Below are positions 128-12,557 of a stretch of DNA of 13,828 bases, piece by piece; the first letter of the stretch is position 1; every line of letters starts with the position of its first letter. The notes beneath the pieces were generated by a model that had not been told where the DNA came from, did no database searches, and saw nothing but the letters and a program-made list of their open reading frames with translations. Both the position numbers and the translations under genes were made by a program. The DNA comes from a virus (taxonomy: Duplodnaviria; Heunggongvirae; Uroviricota; Caudoviricetes; Autographiviridae). The DNA lies in the IMG/VR virus record IMGVR_UViG_2660238008_000004; one strand, 5' to 3'.

Positions 128-355
128 TGAGCAGTGTGTATTGAGTCCTTTTGTAGCTAAAGCTATTACAGATATTCCCGGCTTGAAAAATTGCACGTTT
201 ATGGTTGCCCCTCCCTCAACTGTATAGCTCGCCCGCGCCCCCGTGCGCATGTGCGTGCCCGCGCGTCAGGGGTCGCTGAGAAAACCCTAAGATTTTGCTC
301 ATCCGAGACAACCGTTGCAGGCGCGCGTTGCCGGGGCACACTACTAGTGTTTGAT

Positions 356-460
356 GGTGTCATCAATCGTTCGATTCTTGCTACCTGTCTGAGTGATTAC
401 TATCTGGTGTCATCAATTTAGGGTTTGACTAAATGCTACCATCAATGCAAAGATGCTACC
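356..460. repeat. Cluster of short direct repeats upstream of the serine recombinase gene: GGTGTCATCAAT at 356-367 and 406-417, related ACCATCAATGC at 438-448, ATGCTACC at 433-440 and 453-460
   Basis: Exact 12-mer repeated 50 bp apart with a third CATCAAT copy 30 bp further on, all within 140 bp of the recombinase start codon. The repeats are seen directly; a binding-site role is inference. Confidence 0.5.
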
Positions 461-491
461 GTTTTGTGATACCAGATGGGTGAGGTGAAGC

Positions 492-1067
492 ATGAGGACT
501 TTTATCTACTGCCGCGTTTCAACACGCGAGCAGGATACGCAGAATCAGGTGCTGGCTATTGAGCGTGCCGGGTACACGGTGCCTGAGAGCAGGGTAATCA
601 GCGAGGACATTTCCGGCAGCGTTCAGGCTATGCAGCGCCCTAAGTTTCGAGCGATGGTTGAGCATAAGCTGGAAGCGGGAGATCAGCTTGTCGTGCTGAA
701 ACTGGACAGGCTGGGGCGCGACAACATCGACGTGCAACAGACCATCGACATGCTGTTAGAACGCGGCGTGAAGGTGGTGTCTCTTGACCTGCCAGCGCGT
801 GATCTGACTTCATCTGAGGGCAAGCTAATCCGCCAGATGTTTGGAGCCTTTGCTGAGTTCGAGCGAAACCGTATCCGTGAGAGGACGCTTGACGGGCTGG
901 AGAAGGCGAAAGCCAATGGCGTTAAGCTGGGACGCAAGGAAGCCACCGACACCACTCAAAAGGTGCAGGAGCTGCGGAGTGAGGGGCTGTCTCAATCGAA
1001 GGTAGCTAAGCGTCTCGGCGTTAGCGTGAGCACCGTTAAACGCCACTGGAACAAGGGCGAGGGATGA
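492..1067 (+). CDS. Serine recombinase (resolvase/DNA invertase family), 191 aa
   Basis: N-terminal catalytic motif YCRVSTREQ with the nucleophilic serine, LDRLGRD motif, and C-terminal HTH (SQSKVAKRLGVSVSTVKRH); size typical of Hin/Gin/resolvase proteins. GAGGTG ribosome-binding site 5 nt upstream of ATG 492. Confidence 0.9.
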   Translation: MRTFIYCRVSTREQDTQNQVLAIERAGYTVPESRVISEDISGSVQAMQRPKFRAMVEHKLEAGDQLVVLKLDRLGRDNIDVQQTIDMLLERGVKVVSLDLPARDLTSSEGKLIRQMFGAFAEFERNRIRERTLDGLEKAKANGVKLGRKEATDTTQKVQELRSEGLSQSKVAKRLGVSVSTVKRHWNKGEG

Positions 1068-1133
1068 TGACCTACAAGCGAATGAGGTGCTACGACTGGC
1101 CGTTACTGGGCTGTGGGTGATGGATGACCTACA
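1066..1133. repeat. 11-bp direct repeat GATGACCTACA (1066-1076 and 1123-1133) overlapping the stop codon of the serine recombinase gene
   Basis: Exact 11-mer twice, 57 bp apart, unlikely by chance. Function unknown; possibly part of a recombination or regulatory site. Confidence 0.5.
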
Positions 1134-1770
1134 GCTTTTGTATTTATTTCAGAGGGTTATGTTATACGTAATATCATAACGATATGATTTATAATGTATT
1201 TTCGTGTTACTTGCGGCTCTCGATGTGAAGAGGTGGCGGGGCTTTAGCCGTGCCAGACGATGAACATCGAGATCAGATTGTGAATGTGAGTTATCACTGA
1301 ACAATTCGAGGGATGGGGCAGGGGAAGGGATCAAAGGCTGCGTTGTCCAATCACTAAGCTAGATTTGAAGCTGGTCAACACGTTAGTAGTATCTTTAAAG
1401 TTGCATTTGAAATACATGTACAGGAAAGGGTTCTTCCCTTACATCCCTTCTCCTAAATGTAGTTACGAGTGCTTCGCTCTCTTCACTTGCTGCGCTTCTC
1501 GCTATGCTCCAGCCCGCTCCATCGCCTTTGGCTCATTCCCGGTCTTCGCCCGCTGCTGATGCTCGGCGACTCTACGCAACCGTGCTTGCCGTGGCAGGCA
1601 ACGCGGCGGGGATGTGTAGTGGAACGGTACTCTTTATCGGTATTGTTAATTTAATCAATCATATACTGTTATCGGTAGGTATTCTTCAAAACATCTTCAT
1701 TCATTTCTGTATCGTTCAATCATCTTTCTTTTTCGTTTCCTTTCAGGTCTTAGCCGTCGGTCATTGGTCT

Positions 1771-1876
1771 TACTGCCTGCTGTGCTACTGCCAGCTATGG
1801 CACGCCGTCACGGTTACTGTCTGTCACCTGTCCTACTGCCTTCACTGTCTGCCGTCTGTCAGTCCTACGGTCTGCC
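1771..1876 (+). repeat. Iteron-like array: five same-orientation copies of YACTGYC (1771, 1786, 1815, 1834, 1844) plus related GTCTGCC/GTCTGTC copies (1847, 1854, 1870) in a pyrimidine-rich tract
   Basis: Repeats seen directly in a region with no credible ORF; followed by an AT-rich block at about 1930-2040. Interpretation as replication-origin iterons or another protein-binding array is inference. Confidence 0.45.
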
Positions 1877-2330
1877 ATCCGTCATCAGTTCGGCGCTCGC
1901 TTGTTTCGGCTGCGCCGCGCTCGCTCTGCGTATCTAGCGATACTATATCACTATAGACACTTTCATAATTATCTATTGATATCAGTAACTTATATTTTTA
2001 ATTTTAAAGGCTACTAATAAGGAGATATAGAGCATTACTTTCCCGCTTTTGACCGACAAAAATCGCGCTGTTAAGTATTGCCAGCCCAGGCTCAGTAAGG
2101 CTTAGCGAGGTTGTGGTTAAAAATTGACCTAATGAAGGTATCTACTAAGGAGAAAGAATAACTCCCGAAGCGCGACAAACTCTCCGATTTTGAAAGTGAC
2201 TATTAAGGCAGATAAAGACACTGACACTGTTGCCGACATGAAAACCTCTATAAGGGCAGAGAGTCTGCCGCACCTGTACCACCGCCCCAACCTGAGCTAA
2301 TACCTACCCCTATTTTCTGGAGATTTCACC

Positions 2331-4175
2331 ATGCCAACAAACCTACGCCGCCTGCTTGCGCAGGCTGCCGACGCTGACCCGCTCAATACTGCGGACGCAG
2401 ATGTACAGCAAATGATCGCTGACGGGGTTGTTATTCGACGTTCCAAGATATGCCCCGTAAAGCGTAAGCCCGTTAAGGCGGCATACAACACAAAGACCGA
2501 AGAGTTTTATTACAATGCAGATGGCTCCGCGATGACCTTGCGGGAGTGGCGAACGCTGCACGGTGTTCAACCGAAGAAACAAAAACAGCGCTCTGACGCT
2601 GGGTTGCGGCAAGTCATCCAGCCCGGCGACGCGATTCACTGCCGACGCGCTGAGATTGAGCAATGGCTAAATAAAAAGCCTGCTCGTTATGTTGAACCAC
2701 TGCCGCCAGATTTCCCCGGCGTTCGCGTAGACGATGCCGCATTGAAACCGCGCGAGCACGCCGTGCCGGAATCAACAACCGGACAGAATGCTTTTCTCAA
2801 AGCCTGCCGCGAGTTTCTCATTTGCGATGAGAAGACCATGCGCCGAATTAACAGGGGCATGGGTAAACTGGAAGCGATGCGTAACGCAGATTTCAAACGC
2901 TACGGAGACTCAGGGGAGTTTCGTCAATTTTGGTGTGGAGAGTCGAAGCCTACCGAAGATAGATTTAATAATACAAATCATCATTGTGACCCGAACGGCT
3001 TGGCTGCTTCGCCGTCTGTGCCGCCACTGAATACTACGCCGTATGAGTTCCGCCCCCTGGCTCGCTGTGACCGAAACGCACGCGTTAGCCTGCTGCCACC
3101 TGATGGGCTGGAGTGGAGGCCGGGGCAATTGTCTGTTGCTGATGCGATCTTTTCCCGTGGCAGTGATGTGCTTGCCGTTCTGCCTACTGGGTATGGCAAA
3201 AGCGCTGCCTTCACTTACCCATTGATTTATGAATCCCGCGCTGGCGTTGGCCTGTCTGTTATCGTTGTTCCTACTAATACCCTTAAGCGTCAGATTCTCC
3301 GCCAGTTGCGGGAGGCTGGCGTTCACGCTGTGGCATTTGGTGACAAGCTGCCGAGGCACCGCAATGCGCAACAACTGGCGGGGCTGGCTGCCGGGGCGTT
3401 CCGGGTTGCAGTCGTTTCGCCTGAACATCTGGTTCCGTCGAGTCAGGTTCTCGCGGCGCTGATGGCTTATGGCGTTGATCGTTTTATTATCGATGAGGCA
3501 CACACGGTCAAAGACTGGGATTTCCGCCCAGCTTACGACGCAATGCAGCACACACTACAGAATGCCTTTCCTTCGGCTCAACGCTGCGTGTTTACGGCTA
3601 CGCTGCTACGCGAAAATGAGCGCAGTTTAATGGAGTCGCTTGGCTGCCGTGGCGATTACGTAACATTCCGCGCTGATGTTGCTCGCGAGAATATCCAGTT
3701 GACGCCAGTCAGACAGTGCCGCGAACGTTTCCGAGCGGCTATTGGTCTGGTCGAGGCTCTGCCGAAAGAAGAGAAGACGCTTATTCTCGTCAATGACCTT
3801 AAAACGTTGCGGGCGTACCTGAAACTCTTGGGCGACCGGGCGCGGCCATATCACTCGAAGACGATGCACCTGAGCAACGAGGAACGCCACGCAAACGCTG
3901 AGTGGTTTGCCTCTACGCCGGGCGCGATTCTTATTGCTACTAAAGCCTTCGGGCTGGGTGCTGATGTTCCTGATATCCGTAACGTTGTCGTGACATACGT
4001 CCCCGATGATTTGCCTGATCTCGTTCAGATGATTGGACGAGCCGGGCGCGATGGGGAACCTGCCCGCGCTTTTCTGCTGTGGTCATCGCTGGCGCTGGAT
4101 GTTGCGCCTGATGAGCTTGCTTACTTCTACCGCCCTGAAAACTGCAACTGGCAGTACATCGCTAAATACCTCTGA
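2331..4175 (+). CDS. RecQ-family (SF2) DNA helicase core with an unrecognised ~270-aa N-terminal extension; lacks RQC/HRDC C-terminal domains; 614 aa
   Basis: Walker A LPTGYGKS preceded by a motif-0-like segment (RPGQLSVADAIF); motif Ia IVVPTNTLKRQ; motif II with the RecQ signature IIDEAHTVKDWDFRPAY; motif III FTATL; motif VI MIGRAGRDG about 40 aa from the C-terminus. GGAG ribosome-binding site 8 nt upstream of ATG 2331. Confidence 0.85.
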   Translation: MPTNLRRLLAQAADADPLNTADADVQQMIADGVVIRRSKICPVKRKPVKAAYNTKTEEFYYNADGSAMTLREWRTLHGVQPKKQKQRSDAGLRQVIQPGDAIHCRRAEIEQWLNKKPARYVEPLPPDFPGVRVDDAALKPREHAVPESTTGQNAFLKACREFLICDEKTMRRINRGMGKLEAMRNADFKRYGDSGEFRQFWCGESKPTEDRFNNTNHHCDPNGLAASPSVPPLNTTPYEFRPLARCDRNARVSLLPPDGLEWRPGQLSVADAIFSRGSDVLAVLPTGYGKSAAFTYPLIYESRAGVGLSVIVVPTNTLKRQILRQLREAGVHAVAFGDKLPRHRNAQQLAGLAAGAFRVAVVSPEHLVPSSQVLAALMAYGVDRFIIDEAHTVKDWDFRPAYDAMQHTLQNAFPSAQRCVFTATLLRENERSLMESLGCRGDYVTFRADVARENIQLTPVRQCRERFRAAIGLVEALPKEEKTLILVNDLKTLRAYLKLLGDRARPYHSKTMHLSNEERHANAEWFASTPGAILIATKAFGLGADVPDIRNVVVTYVPDDLPDLVQMIGRAGRDGEPARAFLLWSSLALDVAPDELAYFYRPENCNWQYIAKYL

Positions 4176-4212
4176 GTCGAAAGGCTCTCCCTGATTCTCT
4201 GGAGTTAATCAT

Positions 4213-4650
4213 ATGCCTGTTACCGAACATGCGCAGCGTCGTGCTGCGCGTGCGGATGCGCTCATCACCGCACAACTAGCTTTCGCCCTGAATGGGTACA
4301 ACTGGGATGAACTGGCCGAACCTCATCGCAAGACCCTTAATCGTGAGGCCATCATTCGCGAGGTATTTACACCGCTGGAGCGATATTGCCTGCTGAATGA
4401 TTGCGAGCCGTGGGAGTGTCTGGCCGCTGTACTGAACCGCATGAAAAGGCCGGATGGCTCGCGTCGCTGGAAAGCCGTCCGGTTGTCCGACCGGGTTTTC
4501 AATGGCCGGGTGCATCCGGTACGCAAGACTCCTGATGAAGTTTACGCCGCCATTGCCCGCCGTTTGTTTCTGCCGAAGCCCGTGCATCAAGAAGTGATTC
4601 AGCACATCCGTGCGCTAGGCCTGTTACCAGTTGGAGATAACCACCAATGA
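4213..4650 (+). CDS. Hypothetical protein, 145 aa
   Basis: ORF with GGAG ribosome-binding site 8 nt upstream; co-directional with the helicase and 37 bp downstream of it; no recognisable motif. Confidence 0.6.
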   Translation: MPVTEHAQRRAARADALITAQLAFALNGYNWDELAEPHRKTLNREAIIREVFTPLERYCLLNDCEPWECLAAVLNRMKRPDGSRRWKAVRLSDRVFNGRVHPVRKTPDEVYAAIARRLFLPKPVHQEVIQHIRALGLLPVGDNHQ

Positions 4651-4856
4651 CGAAATCTGAATTTGAAGCCGGAGCATGGGAACTAAAAACCCTGCTGCTG
4701 GGTGCGTTGACGCGCAGGCTTAAGGAGGACGAGGCGGGAGAGTCACGCATGGCTGCTGCCGAGTTGTCATCCTGCGTGAACTTCCTCAAGCAGAACGCCG
4801 CCGACTCGCCTGATACAACCTTTAACAACGTGTTCCCGGAGGATGACGACCAATGA
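4647..4856 (+). CDS. Hypothetical small protein, 69 aa
   Basis: Start ATG overlaps the upstream stop (ATGA at 4647-4650), indicating translational coupling; GGAG 11 nt upstream. Confidence 0.5.
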   Translation: MTKSEFEAGAWELKTLLLGALTRRLKEDEAGESRMAAAELSSCVNFLKQNAADSPDTTFNNVFPEDDDQ

Positions 4857-5029
4857 CCCCTGAACAGTTCCGGCAATGGTTCGCCACGCTGCCGGAGAAA
4901 TATCAACGTGTAGTCCGCTTCATGTACGACAACGCCCGCAAGTCGGGCACACACACCGCGTCAAGCCTTGCGCTGATTCACACGTTGGTTACTGACCAGA
5001 TCAAATTTGATTCGGAGTTTAATTTATGA
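4853..5029 (+). CDS. Hypothetical small protein, 58 aa (below the ORF-track cutoff; MTPEQFRQWFATLPEKYQRVVRF...)
   Basis: Hand translation from ATG 4853, which overlaps the upstream stop (ATGA); GGAGG 11 nt upstream; its stop TGA 5027-5029 overlaps the next start ATG 5026. It fills an otherwise unexplained gap in a tightly packed operon. Confidence 0.45.
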   Translation: MTPEQFRQWFATLPEKYQRVVRFMYDNARKSGTHTASSLALIHTLVTDQIKFDSEFNL

Positions 5030-5589
5030 CTTTGAGTATTACCGATATCCAGCGCATTAACGCGCTGGCTCATAAGCACCTAAAGAACAATGAAGAGATT
5101 GCAGCGGAGACAGGTCATACCCTGACCGATATTGATGCAGTAATCCGTGGCGCCTATGTCGATGACTTGGCCGAACATTGGAAAGACGATGCTGATATTA
5201 ATCTGGCGGAGTACAACGCCATCCGCAGCCGCTATAAGCCCGGCAAGCTGCACCGCGATACAGAGTTTATGATTGCCCGCGATATGCTGATTCGCCCTGA
5301 GACGGTGCTGGCTATCGCCCATTCCCGCTTTAGCAACGCCCACACGCACCCGGTACAGAAACCCTTGAAGGTGAAGCCAGCGAAGCCGAAAGTAGTGCGC
5401 AAGTTAGTGCCTACTGATTTAGATGAAATCCACAAGTTAGAGCGCTTCGGTTGGCCTGCTGCGGAGATCGCCGGGAAGCTGGGCGTCCCTGTTGAGGTCG
5501 TCGCGCATGTGCAACGCTGCCTGAGAAATCGTTGGTCGTACCCGGATACTCTGGAGTCTGTTAACTCCAAATTCAGCGAGGCTGAATGA
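5026..5589 (+). CDS. Hypothetical protein, 187 aa, possible C-terminal HTH
   Basis: ORF translationally coupled to its upstream neighbour; C-terminal segment WPAAEIAGKLGVPVEVVAHVQRCL looks HTH-like (weak). Confidence 0.6.
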   Translation: MTLSITDIQRINALAHKHLKNNEEIAAETGHTLTDIDAVIRGAYVDDLAEHWKDDADINLAEYNAIRSRYKPGKLHRDTEFMIARDMLIRPETVLAIAHSRFSNAHTHPVQKPLKVKPAKPKVVRKLVPTDLDEIHKLERFGWPAAEIAGKLGVPVEVVAHVQRCLRNRWSYPDTLESVNSKFSEAE

Positions 5590-5822
5590 TGGCAGAGAAC
5601 GAACCGCTGCACCCCGCCGTTAACCCTGATCTCTACGTGAACCTTGACGAACAACGCGAAGGATACGCTCCGATTGAATCACGGGGTTGGGATGTGCTGA
5701 CGCAGAACCTGACCGGGAAAGGTCGAACTGACCCCAGCCAAACACTTAACCAGAATCCGAAACAACGCCCGCGCGGCTCCGTTGGTGAGCGTCGTTGGCT
5801 TCGTAAACGTGGATTACTTTAA
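5586..5822 (+). CDS. Hypothetical small protein, 78 aa
   Basis: ATGA start/stop overlap with the upstream gene; basic C-terminus. Confidence 0.5.
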   Translation: MMAENEPLHPAVNPDLYVNLDEQREGYAPIESRGWDVLTQNLTGKGRTDPSQTLNQNPKQRPRGSVGERRWLRKRGLL

Positions 5823-5834
5823 CGAGGAATTACC

Positions 5835-6074
5835 ATGAGCAAAACTATCGTATTGCTGCCGCCCCGCAAGAATACAGACTGGGCTGCACAATTAAAGCTG
5901 ATTTCTGAATCGCTTGAGGTGAGTCAGGCAGACCTCGCCCACGCCTATCAGGTTGATCGTCGGGATATGGGTAAAGCGTATCACGGTGTGCGCAAACTGC
6001 CGGAACGTTGTGTGCCTGTTCATATGCTGTTGTTAGCGCAGGTACACGACTTTAGAGCATTATCAGGAGAGTAA
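5835..6074 (+). CDS. Hypothetical small protein, 79 aa
   Basis: ORF with GAGG ribosome-binding site upstream of ATG 5835; no recognisable motif. Confidence 0.5.
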   Translation: MSKTIVLLPPRKNTDWAAQLKLISESLEVSQADLAHAYQVDRRDMGKAYHGVRKLPERCVPVHMLLLAQVHDFRALSGE

Positions 6075-6077
6075 TTT

Positions 6078-6758
6078 ATGTCTGACCAGAATGTTAATCC
6101 GTACCTTTCCGGTGCTGATGCTGCATCGCAGCAATCGCCATACATGGCTGCACCTGTTGGAGTTGACAATGGAGCATCCCGCTTTAGCTCTGCGCCTGCT
6201 GATGCTGATTTCCTCCGTACCCAACCCGTTAACGGCAATGATGGCGGACAATGGAATAATGGCAATATCGCAAATCAGCAAGACCAGAACGCTGACAGCG
6301 CTGGGGCGCAAGTGGGCGACACACTGCAATTACAGGATGGCACCACTGTTGAGTTGACTCCTGAACTTCATGGGCTGATGGGGCAGTTTCACCAGTCTGT
6401 CGAAAGCCAGCTAGGTCAGGGTACAGTTGACGCGATGTTGCAGTACGCTGGCACGCTCGACGCCGGGACGCAATCAACCCTTGAACGGATGGTCATGTCT
6501 GGCGATCCCGCGCAGATGTCGCGTGCGGTTCAGTATCTGCAAGAGCGTATGGCTGGCGGTTCCATTACCGGTTACGTCCCGAACGGCCAGACTGCCGCGC
6601 AACCTGTCGGAATGTCACATGCTGAGTTTATAGCAGCGTATGACCAGCTTTCGCAGTGGGCGCAGCAATCAGGGTATGGCCCCGGCCATCGCCAGTACGA
6701 TGAACAATACCGCGCTCTGGTTGCGCAGCGCTCCGCTGGCAAACGTGCTGGTCGCTAA
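6078..6758 (+). CDS. Hypothetical protein, 226 aa, with low-complexity Q/N/G/A/S/D-rich N-terminal ~100 aa and a predicted helical C-terminal half
   Basis: AGGAG ribosome-binding site upstream of ATG 6078; the compositional bias is visible in the translation. Possible scaffold or other virion-associated protein given the capsid-like gene downstream (speculative). Confidence 0.6.
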   Translation: MSDQNVNPYLSGADAASQQSPYMAAPVGVDNGASRFSSAPADADFLRTQPVNGNDGGQWNNGNIANQQDQNADSAGAQVGDTLQLQDGTTVELTPELHGLMGQFHQSVESQLGQGTVDAMLQYAGTLDAGTQSTLERMVMSGDPAQMSRAVQYLQERMAGGSITGYVPNGQTAAQPVGMSHAEFIAAYDQLSQWAQQSGYGPGHRQYDEQYRALVAQRSAGKRAGR

Positions 6759-6897
6759 CGCCCAACTGTGGAATGCGCCCTGCAAGACCGAGTGCGCACC
6801 GACCCGGTACTACCACACCAATCTATGCGCATGAGTCCCCGCAAGCCGCATTCTGCGCGGCATCTGAAAGCCTGTTTTTAATTAACCGAGGTTCGTA

Positions 6898-7311
6898 ATG
6901 AGTACCTGTAATTTCCATGCTGTGGAGCGTGTCGCTGACGTGCGCCCGGATTTCGCCTTGCCGCTGGGTAGATGTGATCATGTTTACCCTGAGCGTGTGC
7001 CGCACGTTTTCAATCCAGACGAAGCGGTTTATATCGTTGCACGGTCTGCCACATCCGGCACCCGCACATCTGGCGTTAGCCGTGGGCTTTCCCCTGTGCT
7101 GCCGCCGAAGATGGCCGAGCGGATGCGCGAACGTGAACGGCACGAGAAGAATCGAGCCAGACCCCGCAAGGTAATCACTGAGGCGATACGCGCTGACATT
7201 ATCGTTCGCTCTGCAAAAGGCCAGAAGAATCGTTACATTGCAAGCAAGGTTGGCGTGTCTGAAACCTCTGTGCGGAAGGTGTTGAACATGGCGCGTATGA
7301 GTGCGCACTAA
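6898..7311 (+). CDS. Putative DNA-binding protein with C-terminal HTH, 137 aa
   Basis: C-terminal IRADIIVRSAKGQKNRYIASKVGVSETSVRKVL resembles a resolvase/sigma-type HTH; GAGG ribosome-binding site upstream; the gene is isolated by 139-bp and 198-bp intergenic gaps. Confidence 0.55.
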   Translation: MSTCNFHAVERVADVRPDFALPLGRCDHVYPERVPHVFNPDEAVYIVARSATSGTRTSGVSRGLSPVLPPKMAERMRERERHEKNRARPRKVITEAIRADIIVRSAKGQKNRYIASKVGVSETSVRKVLNMARMSAH

Positions 7312-7425
7312 TGCAAGGTAATACGTTCGCCTTACTTCACGCGCACTAACCCCTGAGAACCGCGCCAGCTCTGGCCTCAAAACGCCCATTTCGGGGCACC
7401 TCATCCCTTTAATCGATACCGTTCT

Positions 7426-7450
7426 GAATCCTGCCTCGGCGGGAGGATTC
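7426..7450. promoter_or_regulatory. Inverted repeat GAATCCTgCC-(tcggc)-GGgAGGATTC about 60 bp upstream of the capsid-like gene
   Basis: 7-bp perfect arms (GAATCCT/AGGATTC) extended to 9 of 10; no T-run follows, so not a classic intrinsic terminator; candidate operator or RNA hairpin. Confidence 0.3.
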
Positions 7451-7509
7451 CGCACGTCTGTGCCATGACGATGGCGCGGGCTTCATCAACCTACGTAGGA
7501 GTTTTGTTT

Positions 7510-8505
7510 ATGGCTGATACTTCGTACAGTCCCGATCTGTTTCGCCCACATTATGGCGGGGTGGAATCCGACAATGATATTCACATCGAGGCTTATGACC
7601 GGGATGTCCAGACCCGTTTAGAGTCCAAATCCGTATTTCTGGCCGAGGGGCTGTCTACATACAGGCCGCTGAAAGGCAGCAACCAATACCGCATTGATCG
7701 CCTGAGTGGTGATCTTGAGGTGAAGGGCAGAACCGCAGGGCAATCGCTGGAGCCTACCGCCGTTAAGTCGGACAAGTTGGTTATCTCTGTGGATACGCTG
7801 AGTTATATCCGCGTCCCGATTGACTATCAGGACGATTGGACAGCACCCACATTTCGCGCAGAGCTGAGCCGCAATATCGGCACTGCGCACGCTAAGTTCT
7901 ACGACGAAGCGCACACCATCCAGTTAATCAAAGCGACTGACTTTGTACCGCCGCCGACACTGCAACCAACGTTTAACCCGCTTACGAATAACGTTGTCTC
8001 GCTCGACCTGACAGCGGGGAGCGAAGAGGACGCCGCAAACGAATTGGTTCACGCCGTCAAAGCGGCTGCTAATCGCTTCCTCACTGAGAAAGATATTCCG
8101 GTGGCCGAGCTGGTGCTTCTCATTGACCCTGCATGGTTCAGCATCCTGATGGAACATAAGAAGCTGATGAACGTCCGTTACAGCCGGGATAGTGGCAACG
8201 ATTACGCATGGCGTCGCGTTGGCTATGTCGCTGGGGTGCGAGTCATTGAGCTGAACAGTTACCCGCAGGAAGTCATTACCGGGCATGAACTGGGCGCTGA
8301 TTATGACGTTACCGCAGAGGAAGCGATGACGAGGGCGACGCTGTTTAAACCTTCCTCTGTGCTGCTGACGGTCGAAGCGCAGAGCGTCATCAATCGCCAG
8401 TGGGATGATGAACGCGAAATGACAATGGTGATGGACTCATATCGCCTGTTCAACGTTGGGCTGCGTCGTCCTGACTGCGTTATCAATTTCCGACAAGCTG
8501 CATAA
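7510..8505 (+). CDS. Hypothetical protein, 332 aa; possible HK97-fold major capsid protein (weak resemblance to T7 gp10-type capsid proteins)
   Basis: Strong AGGAG ribosome-binding site 8 nt upstream of ATG 7510 (preferred over the track start 7465, which has none). By-eye similarity to recalled T7 gp10 segments (KLVISVDTLSYIRVPIDYQDD versus KVITIDGLLTADVLIYDIEDA; LIDPAWFSIL versus CDPDSYSAIL; C-terminal GLRRPDCVINF versus GGLRPEAAGAVVF). The product call is tentative. Confidence 0.4.
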   Translation: MADTSYSPDLFRPHYGGVESDNDIHIEAYDRDVQTRLESKSVFLAEGLSTYRPLKGSNQYRIDRLSGDLEVKGRTAGQSLEPTAVKSDKLVISVDTLSYIRVPIDYQDDWTAPTFRAELSRNIGTAHAKFYDEAHTIQLIKATDFVPPPTLQPTFNPLTNNVVSLDLTAGSEEDAANELVHAVKAAANRFLTEKDIPVAELVLLIDPAWFSILMEHKKLMNVRYSRDSGNDYAWRRVGYVAGVRVIELNSYPQEVITGHELGADYDVTAEEAMTRATLFKPSSVLLTVEAQSVINRQWDDEREMTMVMDSYRLFNVGLRRPDCVINFRQAA

Positions 8506-8521
8506 CTGGAGGGGCTGAGTC

Positions 8522-9031
8522 ATGGTTAATGATGCTTACGCCCCTGAGCTGCTGTGTTCCCTTTTCCTGTATGACCCGGTGACAGGCCGCCTGCACCATA
8601 AAGCTAACCGACGCCGGGTTAAGGCTGGCTCCTATGCTGACTCCACCCGGCGAGCTGATGGCTATCGTCAAGTTGCCCTGCGACTTGATGGCAAGCAGTA
8701 CCAGCTAAAAGCCCATCGCGTGGCGTGGATTCTTGCGCATGGCGCTATTCCTCATGGTAAGCAGATCGATCACATCAACGGTATCCGTGACGACAATCGC
8801 CTATGCAATCTGCGCTTGGTTACGCAGCGGGAAAACGACCAGAACCGACGCAAGGCAAGGGGGTATAGCTGGAATAAGGGCTGTAGAAAATGGGAGGCTT
8901 ACATACGCGTTGATGGTGTACTCCGTCACCTTGGCTTATTTACTACCGAAGTGGCGGCGCGTGCTGCCTATCTAAAAGCTAAAGCCAGATGCCATCCCTC
9001 AACGCCAGCCGATTTATTGCAGGCTGCCTAA
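8522..9031 (+). CDS. HNH endonuclease (HNH_3-type) with C-terminal AP2-like DNA-binding domain, 169 aa
   Basis: Motif HRVAWILAHGAIPHGKQIDHINGIRDDNRLCNLRLVTQRENDQN (H-N-H with conserved asparagines) followed by KWEAYIRVDGVLRHLGLFTTEVAARAAY (AP2-like); GGAGG ribosome-binding site upstream of ATG 8522. Confidence 0.85.
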   Translation: MVNDAYAPELLCSLFLYDPVTGRLHHKANRRRVKAGSYADSTRRADGYRQVALRLDGKQYQLKAHRVAWILAHGAIPHGKQIDHINGIRDDNRLCNLRLVTQRENDQNRRKARGYSWNKGCRKWEAYIRVDGVLRHLGLFTTEVAARAAYLKAKARCHPSTPADLLQAA

Positions 9032-9049
9032 TCCTCGGAGGTTCCATTA

Positions 9050-9475
9050 ATGGCTGATGAAAAGCCGATTAGAGCGCTGGCAGATGATGACCCACGCCGC
9101 CAGCGGTACGCTGAACTGTTGGCGCAGGCTGGCCGCATGTCTATTCCCCGGCTGCATCCGGGCGATGCTAATAGTGTTATGAGTCAGCTTGCGACGATGC
9201 TTGGCGCACCTGTCCCGATAGTCGGTGCTATGACTGAGCACGCCGCTGCATGGCGTGTCTGTCTGCTGGATCAAGGGCTTGGCGATCTTCTGGATGGCTT
9301 GAGTAAGCAGGTGCTGACCGTCTTCTTTCTGCTTTGCTGGAGAGATAGCGCCTTGCGATTGGCAGGTAAGCAAAAGGAACGGCTTACAGCGGCCAGCGAG
9401 GGTTTGACCATTGAGCAATACCGGGCAATGCACCCGGCTTACAGAGAGGATAAAGAAGATGATAACCACAATTAA
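9050..9475 (+). CDS. Hypothetical protein, 141 aa (small-terminase-like role is only a positional guess)
   Basis: GGAGG ribosome-binding site 8 nt upstream of ATG 9050; no recognisable motif. Confidence 0.5.
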   Translation: MADEKPIRALADDDPRRQRYAELLAQAGRMSIPRLHPGDANSVMSQLATMLGAPVPIVGAMTEHAAAWRVCLLDQGLGDLLDGLSKQVLTVFFLLCWRDSALRLAGKQKERLTAASEGLTIEQYRAMHPAYREDKEDDNHN

Positions 9476-9758
9476 ATTAAGGTGGCGGTACATCGAGCCG
9501 CCGCCAATGACTGGCACACTTGCTTACCTGAAACAGTGGGTAATAGATACCGGAGAGCCTGAGCTTGAAGCTGAGTTTCGTAAGCTGCTGGGGCTAATGC
9601 GCCGCAATGGTATCAGTGACGAACGCGTTAATGCGTTGGCCGATGAGCTTTATGCTTTGGTACGCCAGCGCCAGTGCGAAGAATATGAAGCCTGCAAGCG
9701 GGCTTCATCTGACAATGGAGACTTTGAATCATGGTTACACGGACAGACCAGCTATTAA
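9459..9758 (+). CDS. Hypothetical protein, about 99 aa
   Basis: Start chosen at ATG 9459 (GAGAGGA upstream; overlaps the preceding gene by 17 nt) rather than the track start 9411; start position is uncertain. Confidence 0.4.
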   Translation: MITTIKLRWRYIEPPPMTGTLAYLKQWVIDTGEPELEAEFRKLLGLMRRNGISDERVNALADELYALVRQRQCEEYEACKRASSDNGDFESWLHGQTSY

Positions 9759-10159
9759 GAAAAGCTATGCGGGGCTATCTGGAACACCTTGGCAATATGC
9801 CACTGGCGGAACGGATTACAAACGCTGCTGCATTCGAAGATGTTTATCGCTTCCTGTTGAATGGTTCCGGGCGGCTGGAGTTGCGCCGCGCTGATGTGGC
9901 CGCTGTCCGTGTCTTCCTGTGGAATTATCAATACCGACGCTGTGCGGTGACAGGTAAGCCGCTGCGCCTTGCGTCTGCCGTGCTGGATCACTGCCACCGA
10001 ACCGGGCGCGTGCGTGCTGTGGTGCATCGCTCTGCTAATGCTGCTGAGGGTGGCTATTATGTAGGGCGGGTGTGTGGACTCTCACCCGGTAGCATGAATT
10101 TCATGCTACCAGCCTACCGCCGCCACTACAAGGGGCTGGGTATTATTTATCCAGCATAA
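9731..10159 (+). CDS. Endonuclease VII-like protein, 142 aa
   Basis: Segment CAVTGKPL...LDHCHRTGRVRAVVHRSANAAEG parallels the T4 endonuclease VII core (C-x2-C ... DHDH ... VRGLLCNLCNAAEG) recalled from memory, with several zinc-ligand cysteines replaced by His/Ser. Start 9731 overlaps the upstream gene by 28 nt. Confidence 0.55.
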   Translation: MVTRTDQLLRKAMRGYLEHLGNMPLAERITNAAAFEDVYRFLLNGSGRLELRRADVAAVRVFLWNYQYRRCAVTGKPLRLASAVLDHCHRTGRVRAVVHRSANAAEGGYYVGRVCGLSPGSMNFMLPAYRRHYKGLGIIYPA

Positions 10160-10246
10160 CATTGGTCATGGCTCTATTTATTTTATTTTCATGAGGTTAC
10201 ATGTTGCTGTGGCTGCCTATTTACTTGCTCGTATTTAAAACAATTC

Positions 10247-10275
10247 TTGACGGATTGATGTAGATTGCGTAATCT
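10247..10275 (+). promoter_or_regulatory. Sigma70-type promoter: -35 TTGACG (10247-10252), 17-bp spacer, -10 TAATCT (10270-10275), with AT-rich upstream tract
   Basis: Near-consensus hexamers with ideal spacing, about 60 bp upstream of the small ORF at 10337; seen directly. Confidence 0.5.
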
Positions 10276-10336
10276 CCACTTAAAATAACTGCCTACAATG
10301 TGTGCAGGCCAATCACCGAAAAACAGGAGGTACAAT

Positions 10337-10492
10337 ATGACAAAGGCGAAAATCAGCCCCGTATCGACTGGTATGAGTAGGGATGCTCTGAATGCTCTTA
10401 TCAAGACAACGCGTACTGTAGCGCGTAAAAGTTCCAGAGAAACTGATGAGCGTTTAGCTGAATACAGTAAAGTACATGCCGCTTGCAATTGA
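10337..10492 (+). CDS. Small basic protein, 51 aa; candidate antitoxin/partner of the downstream toxin-like gene
   Basis: Strong AGGAGG ribosome-binding site 6 nt upstream of ATG 10337; overlaps the downstream ORF by 17 nt; does not resemble YafN/Phd-type antitoxins as I recall them. Confidence 0.5.
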   Translation: MTKAKISPVSTGMSRDALNALIKTTRTVARKSSRETDERLAEYSKVHAACN

Positions 10493-10949
10493 GTTTGATT
10501 GCTGTGAAAAACTCGCCAATGATGGCGAGTTTCTTCCTTTTTATCAGGAGTTCTGTCGCTATAAGCAACTAAGTGCAGAGCATTCCCGCCCCCGATATTC
10601 CATCCAAAAACTTTTTGCATCTATTTCGCTGCTCTTTGGCAGAGATAGGGACAATGTTGATGAAGATAAGCCGTATCATCAGAAAAGAGAAGGTTTAACA
10701 CATCTACATGTGAGGCAGGAAGACAGTGTCTGGGAGGATGACAATGGGCATCCACTGGTACAATGGAAATGTAAAAGTAACAGCTATTTGATATATTCGT
10801 ATTTTGTATTCTCAGGTACAAGGCACTACTATATTGTTGATTTTATTGATCATGATGCCCATGCAAATTGGGACAATCAAGAAGCAATACAAATGTGGAT
10901 AGATGAAGCTAAACAATATCGAGAACGTATAACAGAAGCGGCTGCATAG
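10476..10949 (+). CDS. YafO-like toxin candidate (type II toxin family), 157 aa
   Basis: By-eye similarity to E. coli YafO recalled from memory: EFCRYKQ versus DFISYKR, LFGRDRDNVDED versus IFGRDALYDDSF, HLHV versus HIHL, and C-terminal HDAHANWDNQEAIQMWIDEA versus EPHKLARDNNQMHKIGKMAE. Poor own ribosome-binding site, consistent with coupling to the upstream small ORF. Confidence 0.45.
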   Translation: MPLAIEFDCCEKLANDGEFLPFYQEFCRYKQLSAEHSRPRYSIQKLFASISLLFGRDRDNVDEDKPYHQKREGLTHLHVRQEDSVWEDDNGHPLVQWKCKSNSYLIYSYFVFSGTRHYYIVDFIDHDAHANWDNQEAIQMWIDEAKQYRERITEAAA

Positions 10950-10977
10950 GAAGCCGATATTATTCGGCTTCTTCTCT
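10950..10977 (+). terminator. Hairpin GAAGCCG-(8 nt loop)-CGGCTTC followed by TTCTCT, immediately after the toxin-like gene stop
   Basis: 7-bp stem seen directly; the U-tract is weak (TTCTCT). It lies between convergent genes, 8 bp from the minus-strand integrase stop. Confidence 0.35.
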
Positions 10978-10984
10978 AAGCATT

Positions 10985-12193
10985 TCATTTAATTAATTCA
11001 TAATCTATTAATTCAATATACCGGCGCATCTCTAAAGGGGATGCTGCGTTTTTTGAATATGTCTTAAAACTCTCAGTGCTACCTCGTTCGTGGCCTACAA
11101 GCAGAGCGATCCTATCTTCTGGCACTTGAGCACGGTCGAGTTGTTGCACAAACGCATGGCGGAGTGAGTGAAACACTTTTCTCTCTGCGGCAAGTTCGCC
11201 AAGAGCTTTACGCTTTGCCCGTGTGAACTGCTGCGTATGCCACGTTGAGCGCTTCCCATCCGCCCGGTCTGTAATTGACGCGTGATTGAACAGAAAACCG
11301 CTATGTGTGGTTTTGAGCAATGATTTCACGAGGGGGATTAGCTTGCTGTGTACTGGGACGATTCGTGCCGCGCTCTTGGTCTTCCCCTCGGTGATCTCAA
11401 AGCACAAAACGCCCTCGATGGTTTTAATACTGCTCTCACGCAGCGTACATATTTCATTGATCCGCATACCGCTGTAAGCACCAATAGCCGTTACCGCCTT
11501 CATCTCGTCATCAAGCAAGGTATAGACCTTTGCCAGCTCTCCCGGTGCGAAGACTTCATAGCTGACCTTGCTGCTTTTTGCTTCGAGTGCATGACCACGC
11601 CAAGGGTTATCCTGTGGCGCATCGTGATAGCGATTGCGTGCCAAATCCCATATCTGCGCCAGTGCACTGATATAGTTCTGGATGGTTTGGGGCGCTCGCT
11701 CAGTTTTGAGTTTATCTAACCAGCCTGTAACTATGGTTCGGTTAATATCTCGCAACTGAACATCTTTCTTTTTCAGGTGGGTTAACAGCACCTCTACGGC
11801 TTTATTGGTCTTGGATAGCGTGGTTAGCTTTCGCTTCTCGCTGTATTGAAGCAGGTACAAATCACGCATTTTTAGCAAGGAAGGGCAAGCCTGAATCGAT
11901 GCACCAAACGATGCGGGGGCTTCCTTGGCGTACACACTGACACGGCGTAGCTCATCAATGATTTGGTCTACAGATGAGCCGCCTTGTGGCTTTAGCAGAT
12001 TCCGTAAGCGAGTCCATTCCAGAGCAATAGCATCGCGAAACAATCGCGCTTGCCGTATGTCTCGTGTCCCTGTGCTTTTCATAAAGTAGCGTTTCCCTTG
12101 GAACAGGTGACGCATATAGCTGGGGATAGCTATCCGCACGAGGTAATTCCCGCAGGGATCTAAAACTAGATAACGATCTCTCTTGAAACTCAT
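10985..12193 (-). CDS. Tyrosine recombinase / phage-type integrase, 402 aa
   Basis: Catalytic residues in conserved context: GMRINEI (Arg), HSLRHAF (His-x-x-Arg), LVGHERGSTESFKTYSK (His and Tyr nucleophile); N-terminal arm-binding-like region (GKRYFMKSTGTRD). Its 5' end lies 134 bp from the tRNA fragment. Confidence 0.9.
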   Translation of the reverse strand: MSFKRDRYLVLDPCGNYLVRIAIPSYMRHLFQGKRYFMKSTGTRDIRQARLFRDAIALEWTRLRNLLKPQGGSSVDQIIDELRRVSVYAKEAPASFGASIQACPSLLKMRDLYLLQYSEKRKLTTLSKTNKAVEVLLTHLKKKDVQLRDINRTIVTGWLDKLKTERAPQTIQNYISALAQIWDLARNRYHDAPQDNPWRGHALEAKSSKVSYEVFAPGELAKVYTLLDDEMKAVTAIGAYSGMRINEICTLRESSIKTIEGVLCFEITEGKTKSAARIVPVHSKLIPLVKSLLKTTHSGFLFNHASITDRADGKRSTWHTQQFTRAKRKALGELAAERKVFHSLRHAFVQQLDRAQVPEDRIALLVGHERGSTESFKTYSKNAASPLEMRRYIELIDYELIK

Positions 12194-12326
12194 ACAAACC
12201 CCGGTTATGTTGTCGGGGCTTTTTCATGGCTAAACAGTCTGTGAAATGTGCCGGGGTTATGAGCTTTATTCTAGCTAGTTCAACGAGTTAACGATGATTA
12301 TTGAAGCAAGCTAAGCCGCCTAAACC

Positions 12327-12357
12327 CGTGCCGGTTCGAGTCCGGCCTTCGGCACCA
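12327..12357 (+). other. 3'-terminal fragment of a tRNA-Leu gene (T-arm, 3' acceptor strand, CCA), not a complete tRNA; candidate att core / direct repeat
   Basis: CGTGCCGGTTCGAGTCCGGCCTTCGGCACCA: T-stem GCCGG/CCGGC around loop TTCGAGT, then CTTCGGC-A-CCA. Matches the 3' end of E. coli tRNA-Leu(CAA) leuX as recalled. No D-arm or anticodon arm upstream; upstream sequence diverges at 12326. Confidence 0.75.
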
Positions 12358-12370
12358 AAAGTATGTAAAT

Positions 12371-12395
12371 AGACCTCAACTGAGGTCTTTTTTTA
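12371..12395 (+). terminator. Rho-independent terminator (AGACCTC-aact-GAGGTCT followed by TTTTTTT)
   Basis: Perfect 7-bp stem, 4-nt loop and 7-T run immediately downstream of the tRNA 3' fragment; consistent with the native tRNA terminator. Confidence 0.75.
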
Positions 12396-12479
12396 TGCCT
12401 GAAATCCGCGCCACACAAGGCTTTTCCAGCTTTTCTCCTCAACTGAAGTCAACCTGACTCAACCCACATCAACAGGCTT

Positions 12480-12531
12480 GTGAGTATACTAATGAGTATA
12501 TTTGCCGATTCGATATTGCTTGTATACTCAC
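12480..12531. promoter_or_regulatory. Repeats in the integrase upstream region: GTGAGTATAC (12480-12489), TGAGTATA (12493-12500) and inverted GTATACTCAC (12522-12531)
   Basis: 10-bp inverted repeat with an extra direct copy, 27-78 bp upstream of the integrase start; candidate integrase arm-type sites or operator. Seen directly; function inferred. Confidence 0.4.
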
Positions 12532-12557
12532 GAGATACCAATGGAAGGAAGACCATT

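Follow-up and report, generated by a model that had tools for sequence, protein, structure and literature searches.

The DNA studied here is a stretch of 13,828 nucleotides (IMG/VR record IMGVR_UViG_2660238008_000004), which we refer to as the window. It carries an integrative island of enterobacteria, and our subject is a tract of short repeats at positions 1771-1876 (the array), located in a gene-free stretch of 1.26 kb between the genes for a serine recombinase and a RecQ-family helicase. An earlier note on this sequence had interpreted the repeats as iterons of a replication origin. We find that the tract is homologous to sequence at the left genome end of Bonnellvirus phages. Judging from comparisons of these sequences, the array is probably part of a cis-acting module that mimics the genome ends and promoters of helper phages, within a satellite-like island of Bonnellvirus phages. 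The argument depends on the following features.

176-223, plus strand: patch A, CCCGGCTTGAAAAATTG...GCCCCTCCC/TCAAC, homologous to the sequence straddling the left boundary of the phage direct terminal repeat
1765-1994, plus strand: patch B, 230 bp, phage-homologous by alignment with Bonnellvirus phages
1771-1876, plus strand: array of 10 CTGYC cores, 5 of them as YACTGYC, homologous to the Bonnellvirus left-end short-repeat tract
1907-1943, no strand assigned: G+C-rich block CGGCTGCGCCGCGCTCGCTCTGCGTATCTAGCGATAC, invariant in 20/20 aligned copies and also present in islands L026 and L027
1946-1968, minus strand: predicted reversed promoter for a phage RNA polymerase, 5'-TTATGAAAGTGTCTATAGTGATA, from -17 to +6, with a predicted start at 1951 and a position weight matrix (PWM) score of 20.2 bits
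1969-1994, plus strand: AT-rich phage-derived tail, ATTATCTATTGATATCAGTAACTTATA
2132-2150, 2190-2208, and 2238-2256, plus strand: rightward phage-promoter-like sites found with the PWM, upstream of the helicase operon and conserved in other islands

The array is a degenerate tract of short repeats

Five copies of YACTGYC begin at positions 1771, 1786, 1815, 1834, and 1843 of the plus strand. The shorter core CTGYC occurs ten times on this strand within 1773-1876, including GTCTGCC/GTCTGTC units at 1847-1860 and 1870-1876. We compared these counts with those in 5,000 dinucleotide-preserving shuffles of 1771-1876 itself. The shuffled sequences carried 1.84 +/- 1.21 copies of CTGYC and 0.44 +/- 0.64 copies of YACTGYC, and 0 of 5,000 contained as many as the observed ten or five, respectively. 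The same-orientation copies reported in the earlier note, together with the further GTCTGYC units extending to 1876, are thereby confirmed. Its description of the surroundings was also accurate. Pyrimidines make up 66-74% of the plus strand in the tract and A only 11%, an AT-rich block (1945-2040, 23% G+C) lies 3' of the array, and the next gene, at 2331-4175, encodes the helicase.

The distances between CTGYC cores are irregular (4, 7, 8, 9, 15, 16, and 29 bp), and the units are only 5-7 bp long. Tandem Repeats Finder reported no array in the window, and a repeat search returned only loose families of 16-23 nt with 66-83% identity. The region at 1771-1876 is therefore a degenerate short-repeat tract, unlike the regularly spaced arrays formed by iterons of 17-22 bp.

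All three reading frames are open across the array because A is scarce. The overlapping open reading frames (ORFs) at 1504-1956 and 1764-1937 matched no PHROG family, and the extents of the open frames are not conserved among the 20 homologous copies described below, which differ by 1-nt indels. Therefore, we rejected a coding interpretation of these ORFs, in agreement with the earlier view of the tract as non-coding. A structured RNA was also considered. There was no Rfam match over the whole window at gathering thresholds and none in 1000-2400 at E<=1. Folding of 1760-1951 and 1290-1640 on both strands gave z scores of -0.4 to -1.3, which do not support a structured RNA, and ARAGORN found no tRNA in the window.

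Patch B matches the left genome end of Bonnellvirus phages

In a sensitive search of 50,697 phage records with the non-coding region, 15 records matched, all of them Bonnellvirus or close relatives. These are phiKMV-like Autographivirales of ~42 kb that infect Escherichia, Enterobacter, Kosakonia, Pantoea, and Cronobacter, and in that search the matches were limited to positions 1765-1994. Similarity is greatest in the core at 1828-1994, where 166/167 positions (99.4%) are identical to positions 4796-4962 of phage LF82-23. Segment 1765-1827 is more diverged, and similarity fades gradually leftward to ~1765. The right edge at 1994 is abrupt in 10/10 islands examined. The phage-shared segment includes the entire array and the first half of the AT-rich block.

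In every annotated phage record, the match falls in a gap without genes that is bounded by the endolysin gene and the first early gene. On its side of the gap the endolysin gene comes last, four genes downstream of the gene for the large terminase. The segment thus lies where the late genes end and the early genes begin, and it adjoins the direct terminal repeat. The end of the G+C-rich block is an inverted repeat, GTATC-TAGC-GATAC (1930-1943), and the linear GenBank record of phage glasur breaks exactly after this block. The motif ATGATTACAGTAACTTAT of the AT-rich tail has a second copy 80 bp further on in the phage.

We aligned the core from ten islands and ten phages, and the repeat is common to all of these copies. 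The earlier note had suggested a search for it in related elements. Four sets of alternative variants are shared by islands and phages and appear in mosaic combinations across the 20 copies. These are (set 1) GTCCTACGGTCTGCC or TCCTGTCGGATTCC, (set 2) TTGTTT or TCGAAT, (set 3) the promoter specificity bases that follow TATAG on the plus strand, which are ACAC, TCAC, or TAGC, and (set 4) CTATTGATATCAG or CTAATGATTACAG. A fourth form of the specificity bases, ATGC, is present only in the islands ARS-C101 and L026. About 70 positions of the core are invariant in 20/20 copies, and such invariant stretches imply constraint. Furthermore, the core is nearly identical to that of a living phage, LF82-23, whereas the capsid protein of the island shares only 55% identity with the one of that phage, and synonymous divergence (dS) between the capsid genes of islands is 0.2-0.5. 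The core has therefore undergone either recent exchange with phages or strong constraint.

The annotation of the type species J8-65 includes a 259-bp direct terminal repeat (repeat_region 1-259 and 40723-40981). According to the J8-65 alignment, the phage layout begins with the endolysin gene, followed by ...CCCGGCTTGAAAATTG...CCTCCC and then by the terminal repeat, which starts TCGACCC... and is ~250 bp long. Directly after the repeat is the conserved sequence TATCTGTCTCTTTT (in J8-65, TATCTATCTTTTTT). Next are ~200 bp of short repeats, first G/T-rich and then C/T-rich, with 2-8% A, of which the last part is the CTGYC array. Past the array, the invariant G+C block and the reversed promoter are followed by AT-rich DNA and then by the early genes with strong sigma-70 promoters in front of them. 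Homology with J8-65 puts the end of the terminal repeat ~130 bp to the left of the core, so the array belongs to the unique left-end region, 100-250 bp inside the left genome end by homologous layout. We first assumed that the core was the phage terminal repeat itself, but this assignment was dropped because the J8-65 annotation places the repeat to its left. The break-points of the other phage records did not map the repeat ends, and the length discrepancy of Kc261 was likewise of no help.

Two side observations concern this part of the phage genomes. The sequence TATCTGTCTCTTTT (L007 4660-4680; L037 260-290) resembles the class II pause signal of T7, ATCTGTT, and has the same position as that signal. 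In addition, several "hypothetical proteins" are annotated across the A-poor phage ends, namely Kc261 QQM15444.1 (L004 2718-3257), forsur_28, ROV85_22, and HHU8 XMR00743.1. These are very probably spurious ORFs, because stop codons are rare where A is 2-8%.

Patch A matches the boundary of the terminal repeat

The second phage-homologous segment of the island, patch A, is kept in 8/8 islands from five genera and in all of the phages, including J8-65. Its similarity to the phages starts at the identical base in every island, and weaker similarity continues beyond 223 to ~262. Between patches A and B, where the phages carry their terminal repeat, the island has 1.5 kb of its own DNA that includes the recombinase gene.

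About 700 bp of this interval (1068-1764), from the recombinase gene to patch B, is non-coding, and 1068-1329 or 1204-1646 match at 84-89% between island subtypes. Strand composition switches sharply within it, from purine-rich at 1100-1400 to pyrimidine-rich at 1400-1600. We found no Rfam match, no significant fold, and no phage match for 1068-1764.

Predicted phage-type promoters follow the array and precede the helicase operon

The earlier note had regarded the AT-rich block as an unwinding segment. The block is AT-rich as described, but half of it consists of phage leader sequence and a predicted phage promoter. The evidence for this promoter begins with 22 bases, ATATCACTATAGACACTTTCAT, at the genome end of LF82-23. 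A perfect inverted copy of them is located in the interval that separates the RNA polymerase gene from the first structural gene. Copies of the motif ATGAARGTGTCTA in the direction of the genes are located at 11327, 25618, and 25887 of LF82-23, each ahead of a gene block, and these blocks comprise DNA-metabolism genes and structural genes. The motif is reversed only once in this genome, at the genome end (4934). The part shared between sites is TATGAAAG-NNNN-CTATAG-TGATA, and its extent from -17 to +6 is that of T7-type promoters.

At -6 to -9, the phages have different bases (TGTC in LF82-23, CTAC in Kc261, and TGAC in glasur), which are the same in both copies within each phage. When the last ~150 residues of the three polymerases were compared, differences were densest 20-32 residues before APNFVH, in a stretch that aligns with the specificity loop of T7 RNA polymerase. 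Because these bases vary with the phage and with the specificity-loop region, ATGAARGTGTCTA is predicted to be the promoter of the phage single-subunit RNA polymerase. We also considered TCACTATAG on the plus strand, which matches T7 promoters from -8 to +1. This candidate was rejected because the forward phage copies and the motif extent give the opposite orientation.

A PWM built from phage sites alone was then scanned over the 13.8-kb window. Four sites were identified, all within 1946-2256, compared with 0.12 expected. One is the reversed site, which points leftward into the G+C block and the array. The other three point rightward toward the helicase gene and carry differing bases at -6 to -9, and there is a weaker rightward promoter-like site near 2001-2025. 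No sigma-70-like promoter was found upstream of the helicase gene in 1178-2330. The Kosakonia island carries the specificity variant of Kosakonia phages.

Every Bonnellvirus, including J8-65, has one leftward promoter of this kind (L007 4933 on the minus strand; L037 505-545), which opposes all genes and lies ~250-300 bp inside the terminal repeat. Its transcript would be nearly U-free. We know of no description of this genome-end promoter, which may act in end replication, concatemer formation, or packaging.

Island variants bear on two origin models

The islands differ in how much of patch B they retain. L026 and L027 have all of it. In the Kosakonia island and the Enterobacter ECC-219 island, all that is left is ~55 bp equivalent to the right half of the array, which directly abuts a rightward promoter like that of Kosakonia phages (GCTAC), and the G+C block and the reversed promoter are missing. 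Four islands of Enterobacter and Trabulsiella have no patch B. In these, the equivalent of window 1645-2308 is replaced by another pyrimidine-rich and AT-rich cassette (L028 3050-3860, L029 3976-4791, L031 4113-4961, and L032 4040-4920), which is followed by 5-6 rightward promoter-like sites of the form NNNNCTACTAAGRAGR. The alternative cassette has no match among the 50,697 phage records and may come from an unsampled helper lineage. This comparison indicates that patch A and the rightward promoter mimics are constant and that patch B can be exchanged as a module, with the array as the part of it that is retained longest. T-rich elements are present just to the left of the array or cassette (window 1698-1740 CAATCATCTTTCTTTTTCG, L030 GTATCATCTTCCTT, and L029 GCGTATCTCCGTTCG), and their loose resemblance to the phage sequence TATCTGTCTCTTTT is too weak to call.

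These variants are informative with regard to the iteron model, in which an initiator encoded by the island would bind the repeats, the AT-rich block would melt, and the downstream helicase would be loaded. Such a model draws on the position of the same-strand repeats, which adjoin an AT-rich block upstream of a helicase gene, and on the retention of the array in islands that are otherwise rearranged. However, the array is entirely absent from four islands that have the same helicase, the cores and spacings are not those of iterons and escape Tandem Repeats Finder, and neither a Rep/initiator domain in the neighboring genes (Pfam, NCBIfam, and PHROGs) nor a DnaA box in 1000-2400 was found. Moreover, the tract is nearly identical in phages that do not have the island helicase and encode their own DnaB-like helicase and primase. 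The further proposal that the downstream helicase serves the repeats is not supported either, given that this protein is RecQ-like and that no initiator domain was detected. Therefore, the part of the earlier interpretation that survives is an array within a mobile, satellite-like element, and an iteron origin belonging to the island itself is quite improbable.

A different origin model deserves more weight and is the main rival to our interpretation. T7 origins consist of a phage promoter adjoining an AT-rich region. By analogy, the reversed promoter could fire leftward to produce a purine-rich, U-poor transcript whose R-loop primes replication by the primase-helicase and DNA polymerase of the helper, with the array serving as the R-loop tract. 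The promoter does adjoin the block of 23% G+C and point into a G+C-rich, A-poor tract (63-74% pyrimidine in the template), and this arrangement recurs at the left end of all Bonnellviruses, including J8-65. The leftward phage transcript would have no coding role because every phage gene is on the other strand. T7 phagemids are also stated, in an account that cites the original work, to require a T7 origin in cis.

Against this model, the Kosakonia and ECC-219 islands have the array with only rightward promoters downstream, so no phage promoter would transcribe it, and the leftward transcript shows no particular structure (z = -1.3). No origin is known to us to have been mapped in a phiKMV-like phage. 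Because two islands keep the array and have no leftward promoter, we treat leftward transcription across it as a rival explanation only. We consider such an origin unlikely, although it is compatible with a role for the module in packaging. The array very probably acts in cis, as a site for the machinery of replication or packaging.

Genes, borders, and distribution of the island

The remaining features of the island are as follows.

492-1067, plus strand: serine recombinase (resolvase/invertase) gene, flanked by patches A and B
2331-4175, plus strand: RecQ-family DEAD/DEAH helicase gene, encoding an uncharacterized N-terminal region of 260 amino acids (aa); first gene of a long operon
7465-8505, plus strand: gene for a major capsid protein of the Bonnellvirus (T7-like) type (PHROG 267, E 7e-71; BLASTP E 7e-132), 55% identical to that of the phage
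8522-9031, plus strand: HNH endonuclease gene
9731-10159, plus strand: gene for an endonuclease VII (EndoVII)-like protein
10985-12193, minus strand: tyrosine integrase gene of the island
12327-12358, plus strand: 32-bp attachment (att) repeat, equal to the 3' end of tRNA-Leu(CAA), marking the right island border

The 1.3-kb non-coding region is present as a single copy in 58/5426 complete Escherichia coli genomes and is always chromosomal. In strain E2348/69, the element adjoins tRNA-Leu, and window positions 355-10077 and 11028-12407 match that element. Islands with the same backbone and the same att occur in Escherichia (51-58/5426 genomes) and, as a search with the capsid protein revealed, in Enterobacter, Kluyvera, Kosakonia, and Trabulsiella, and this range of five genera overlaps the known hosts of Bonnellvirus. 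For five islands with both att copies, the distance from att to att is 14,627-15,158 bp, or ~0.35 of the 42.2-42.5-kb helper genome. The left border is either outside the window or cut off by IS1.

The capsid gene is the only virion gene recognized in the island. Across ten islands, its ratio of nonsynonymous to synonymous divergence (dN/dS) is 0.05-0.16 at dS of 0.2-0.5, indicating purifying selection. When the other island proteins were searched against the phage with tblastn, only a marginal match was obtained (ORF 4647-4856; 45 aa, E 0.006). Small ORFs without relatives lie between the helicase and capsid genes. Sequence searches of the PDB with the N terminus of the helicase and with a 226-aa ORF gave nothing useful, and the N terminus has no relative in that database.

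Several other observations were made in the course of this analysis. Residues 112-614 of the helicase match PADLOC model PDLC02858 ("DpdF") with E 1e-276, and the island has no other Dpd gene. Defense-annotation pipelines may thus label a satellite helicase as part of a Dpd system. Positions 1-129 of the window are part of an IS1 that is 100% identical to the IS1 of phage P1 records and that interrupts the island 47 bp leftward of patch A, so that the cargo side and the left att of this island copy are absent from the window or displaced. The only island segment that does not align with E2348/69 is 10078-11027, where a minus-strand ORF of 143 aa without relatives (10189-10620) takes the place of a 300-aa hypothetical gene. 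This segment looks like a variable cargo slot adjoining the integrase gene. To the right of the island, 12480-13826 contains the start of a second integrase gene, of the P4 type, with 68% DNA identity to P4 int. Its location past the att repeat implies that another island is inserted in tandem at the same tRNA-Leu site. Finally, an IMG/VR contig of 27.7 kb (L035, IMGVR_UViG_3300011142_000025) carries the island with a helicase side that is 91% identical. This record may be a provirus call and does not count as evidence of encapsidation.

A proposed satellite that mimics the genome end of its helper

Together, the features described above suggest that the island is a satellite of T7-like phages, of a kind that has not been described before. 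The island has an integrase gene, an att site, a size of 14.6-15.2 kb, and few virion genes, as satellites generally do. It also carries in cis, in the form of patches A and B, sequence homologous to the genome end of the helper. From this anatomy we infer induction, replication, and packaging by the helper, as well as a specific role for the array.

In the mechanism that we propose, infection would bring in a phage RNA polymerase that reads the three rightward promoter mimics (2132-2256). The polymerase would then transcribe an otherwise promoterless operon encoding the helicase, capsid protein, HNH endonuclease, and EndoVII-like protein. Patches A and B would make island DNA resemble a helper genome end to the machinery for replication, concatemer processing, and packaging. 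Patch A would contribute the sequence straddling the left cut site of the terminal repeat, and patch B a module made up of the array, the invariant G+C block, and the reversed promoter. Within this module, the most likely role of the CTGYC array is to bind a protein of the helper that recognizes genome ends, such as the small terminase. In position, the array corresponds to the SRL short repeats in T7. We favor protein binding over an R-loop role because two islands keep the array without leftward transcription. The ratio of ~0.35 to the helper genome, together with the capsid gene, suggests that monomers could be packaged into small capsids.

Several observations weigh against this interpretation. 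The array is not the terminal repeat itself. The island has no clear counterpart of TATCTGTCTCTTTT, the conserved sequence beside the phage repeat that resembles the pause signal of the T7 concatemer junction. No terminase, portal, protease, scaffold, connector, or tail genes were recognized in it with Pfam, PHROGs, and NCBIfam, although several of its ORFs have no assignment. The absence of patch B from four islands implies that it is not indispensable to the backbone. Lastly, the two islands whose array is accompanied by only a rightward promoter contradict any model that requires leftward transcription through the array.

The operon content could also be read as defense. The mimics might switch on nucleases and a helicase upon infection, and the end mimic might titrate terminase or polymerase or misdirect concatemer processing, which would protect the population without any packaging of the island. 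A phage-promoter-driven operon with two nucleases (HNH and EndoVII) fits this idea, as does the match of the helicase to the PADLOC DpdF model. Recent exchange with a virulent phage would likewise imply that cells or island DNA outlive infection. However, the capsid gene is conserved under purifying selection, the size is tightly held at about one-third of the helper genome, and an integrase, an att site, and occurrence in five genera are features of elements that travel in capsids. An anti-phage decoy or sensor of this type is thus improbable. The distinction is not a sharp one, since PLE and P4 are known satellites that both defend and transfer, and a decoy function would overlap the mechanism proposed above.

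We also asked whether the island might be inert, either as a decayed T7-like prophage or as a recombination scar whose array has no present function. Temperate T7-like phages exist, and the island has genes for a capsid protein of the T7 type, EndoVII, and an integrase. Nevertheless, this explanation is scarcely credible, given that gene content and size are the same across five genera, capsid dN/dS is ~0.1, and the core matches a living phage at 99.4% despite the dS of 0.2-0.5 between islands, with mosaic shared polymorphisms and long invariant stretches.

Stated in full, the model of a genome-end mimic is plausible, if still tentative. Enterobacteriaceae would harbor ~15-kb satellites of virulent phiKMV-like podophages that are switched on by the helper polymerase through promoter mimics with diversified specificity bases. 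These satellites would carry copies of both flanks of the terminal repeat, update them by recombination with phages, and supply their own capsid protein for heads of one-third size.

Significance of a possible satellite of T7-like phages

Known phage satellites parasitize temperate siphoviruses and myoviruses or a few virulent myoviruses. Phages of the T7 supergroup shut down the host rapidly, bring an RNA polymerase of their own, and fill their heads with unit genomes bearing direct terminal repeats. The literature that we searched, which is incomplete and thus gives no proof, describes no satellite of Autographivirales or T7-like phages. The general phenomenon, a phage satellite that mimics the ends of its helper, is already known. 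What is unusual is a presumed virulent helper of the T7 supergroup, mimicry of promoters for the phage polymerase, and a capsid protein of the island's own as its only recognized structural gene.

If this model is correct, the island would represent a new induction logic in bacteria, in which promoter mimics are read by the helper polymerase and no repressor is involved. It would be a natural "phagemid" for T7-like phages and would offer an experimental route to what the short-repeat tracts and the reversed promoter do at genome ends of the T7 type. The array in particular would be the first natural handle on the short-repeat tracts beside T7-type terminal repeats, a question that has stood since the T7 sequence of 1983. 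There might be practical relevance as well. The phages concerned (coliphages and phages of Enterobacter, Cronobacter, Pantoea, and Kosakonia) belong to the lytic kind that is favored for phage therapy and biocontrol, and the island is present in ~1% of complete E. coli genomes, including that of the enteropathogenic strain E2348/69, which would matter if it hijacks or blocks such phages.

Comparison with known systems

The island has several properties in common with P4, PICIs, PLE, and PICMI. All are integrative elements with an integrase, replication genes, a size about one-third that of the helper, and a cis site copied from the helper end. The cos site of P4 is that of P2, there are E. coli PICIs that carry cos, and PLE and PICMI are satellites of virulent phages. 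Size ratios for P4/P2 and SaPI1/80alpha are also ~0.35. The island differs in that its presumed helper is a podophage of the T7 supergroup with direct terminal repeats and its own RNA polymerase, and in that it brings a major capsid protein but no portal, protease, or terminase. The defining genes of the P4-like, PICI, cf-PICI, and PLE families were not found in it. It does not match a cf-PICI because it has only the capsid and HNH genes of such an element, without portal, protease, connectors, or small terminase, and because its capsid is T7-like. Nor is it P4-like, given the absence of sid/psu/delta, the alpha primase-helicase, and the P2-type cos families. The sole similarity to P4 in the window is the integrase fragment of the neighboring island at 12480-13826.

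Plasmid iterons offer a more limited parallel. Those of pSC101, R6K, P1, and F are 17-22 bp long and regularly phased, with a cognate Rep alongside and usually DnaA boxes. The array resembles them in having same-strand repeats that adjoin an AT-rich block, but the other features of iteron origins fail here. With regard to induction, an analogy is provided by the virophages Sputnik and mavirus, which use the late promoter motif of their giant virus. The island would similarly be an integrated parasite of a virus that stays silent until the viral transcription machinery reads its promoter copies. The differences are that the hosts of the island are bacteria, that the polymerase is a single-subunit T7-like enzyme, and that the case made here comes from sequence.

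A further comparison is with T7 itself, whose phagemids are the closest precedent from experiments. The left end of T7 reportedly consists of the terminal repeat, the ATCTGTT pause signal to its right, SRL, phiOL, an AT-rich stretch, and promoters A1-A3, as laid out by Dunn and Studier in 1983. The Bonnellvirus helpers have the same order, namely the last late gene, the terminal repeat, a pause-like signal, same-strand short repeats, a phage promoter, AT-rich DNA, and early promoters. However, there is no sequence similarity between the two ends. The repeat unit is CTGYC in Bonnellvirus and the island and CCTAAAG in T7, and the end-proximal promoter of Bonnellvirus points leftward to the repeat, whereas phiOL points rightward. 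Packaging of T7 DNA begins from a polymerase paused at the concatemer junction (PMC3276506). According to an article citing Chung and Hinkle 1990 (PMC13236587), T7 replicates and packages plasmids furnished with a T7 origin, pac, and the terminal repeat, and it transduces them. The island has only the flanks of the repeat, separated by 1.5 kb of its own DNA including the resolvase gene. With that difference, it resembles a natural equivalent of such a plasmid.

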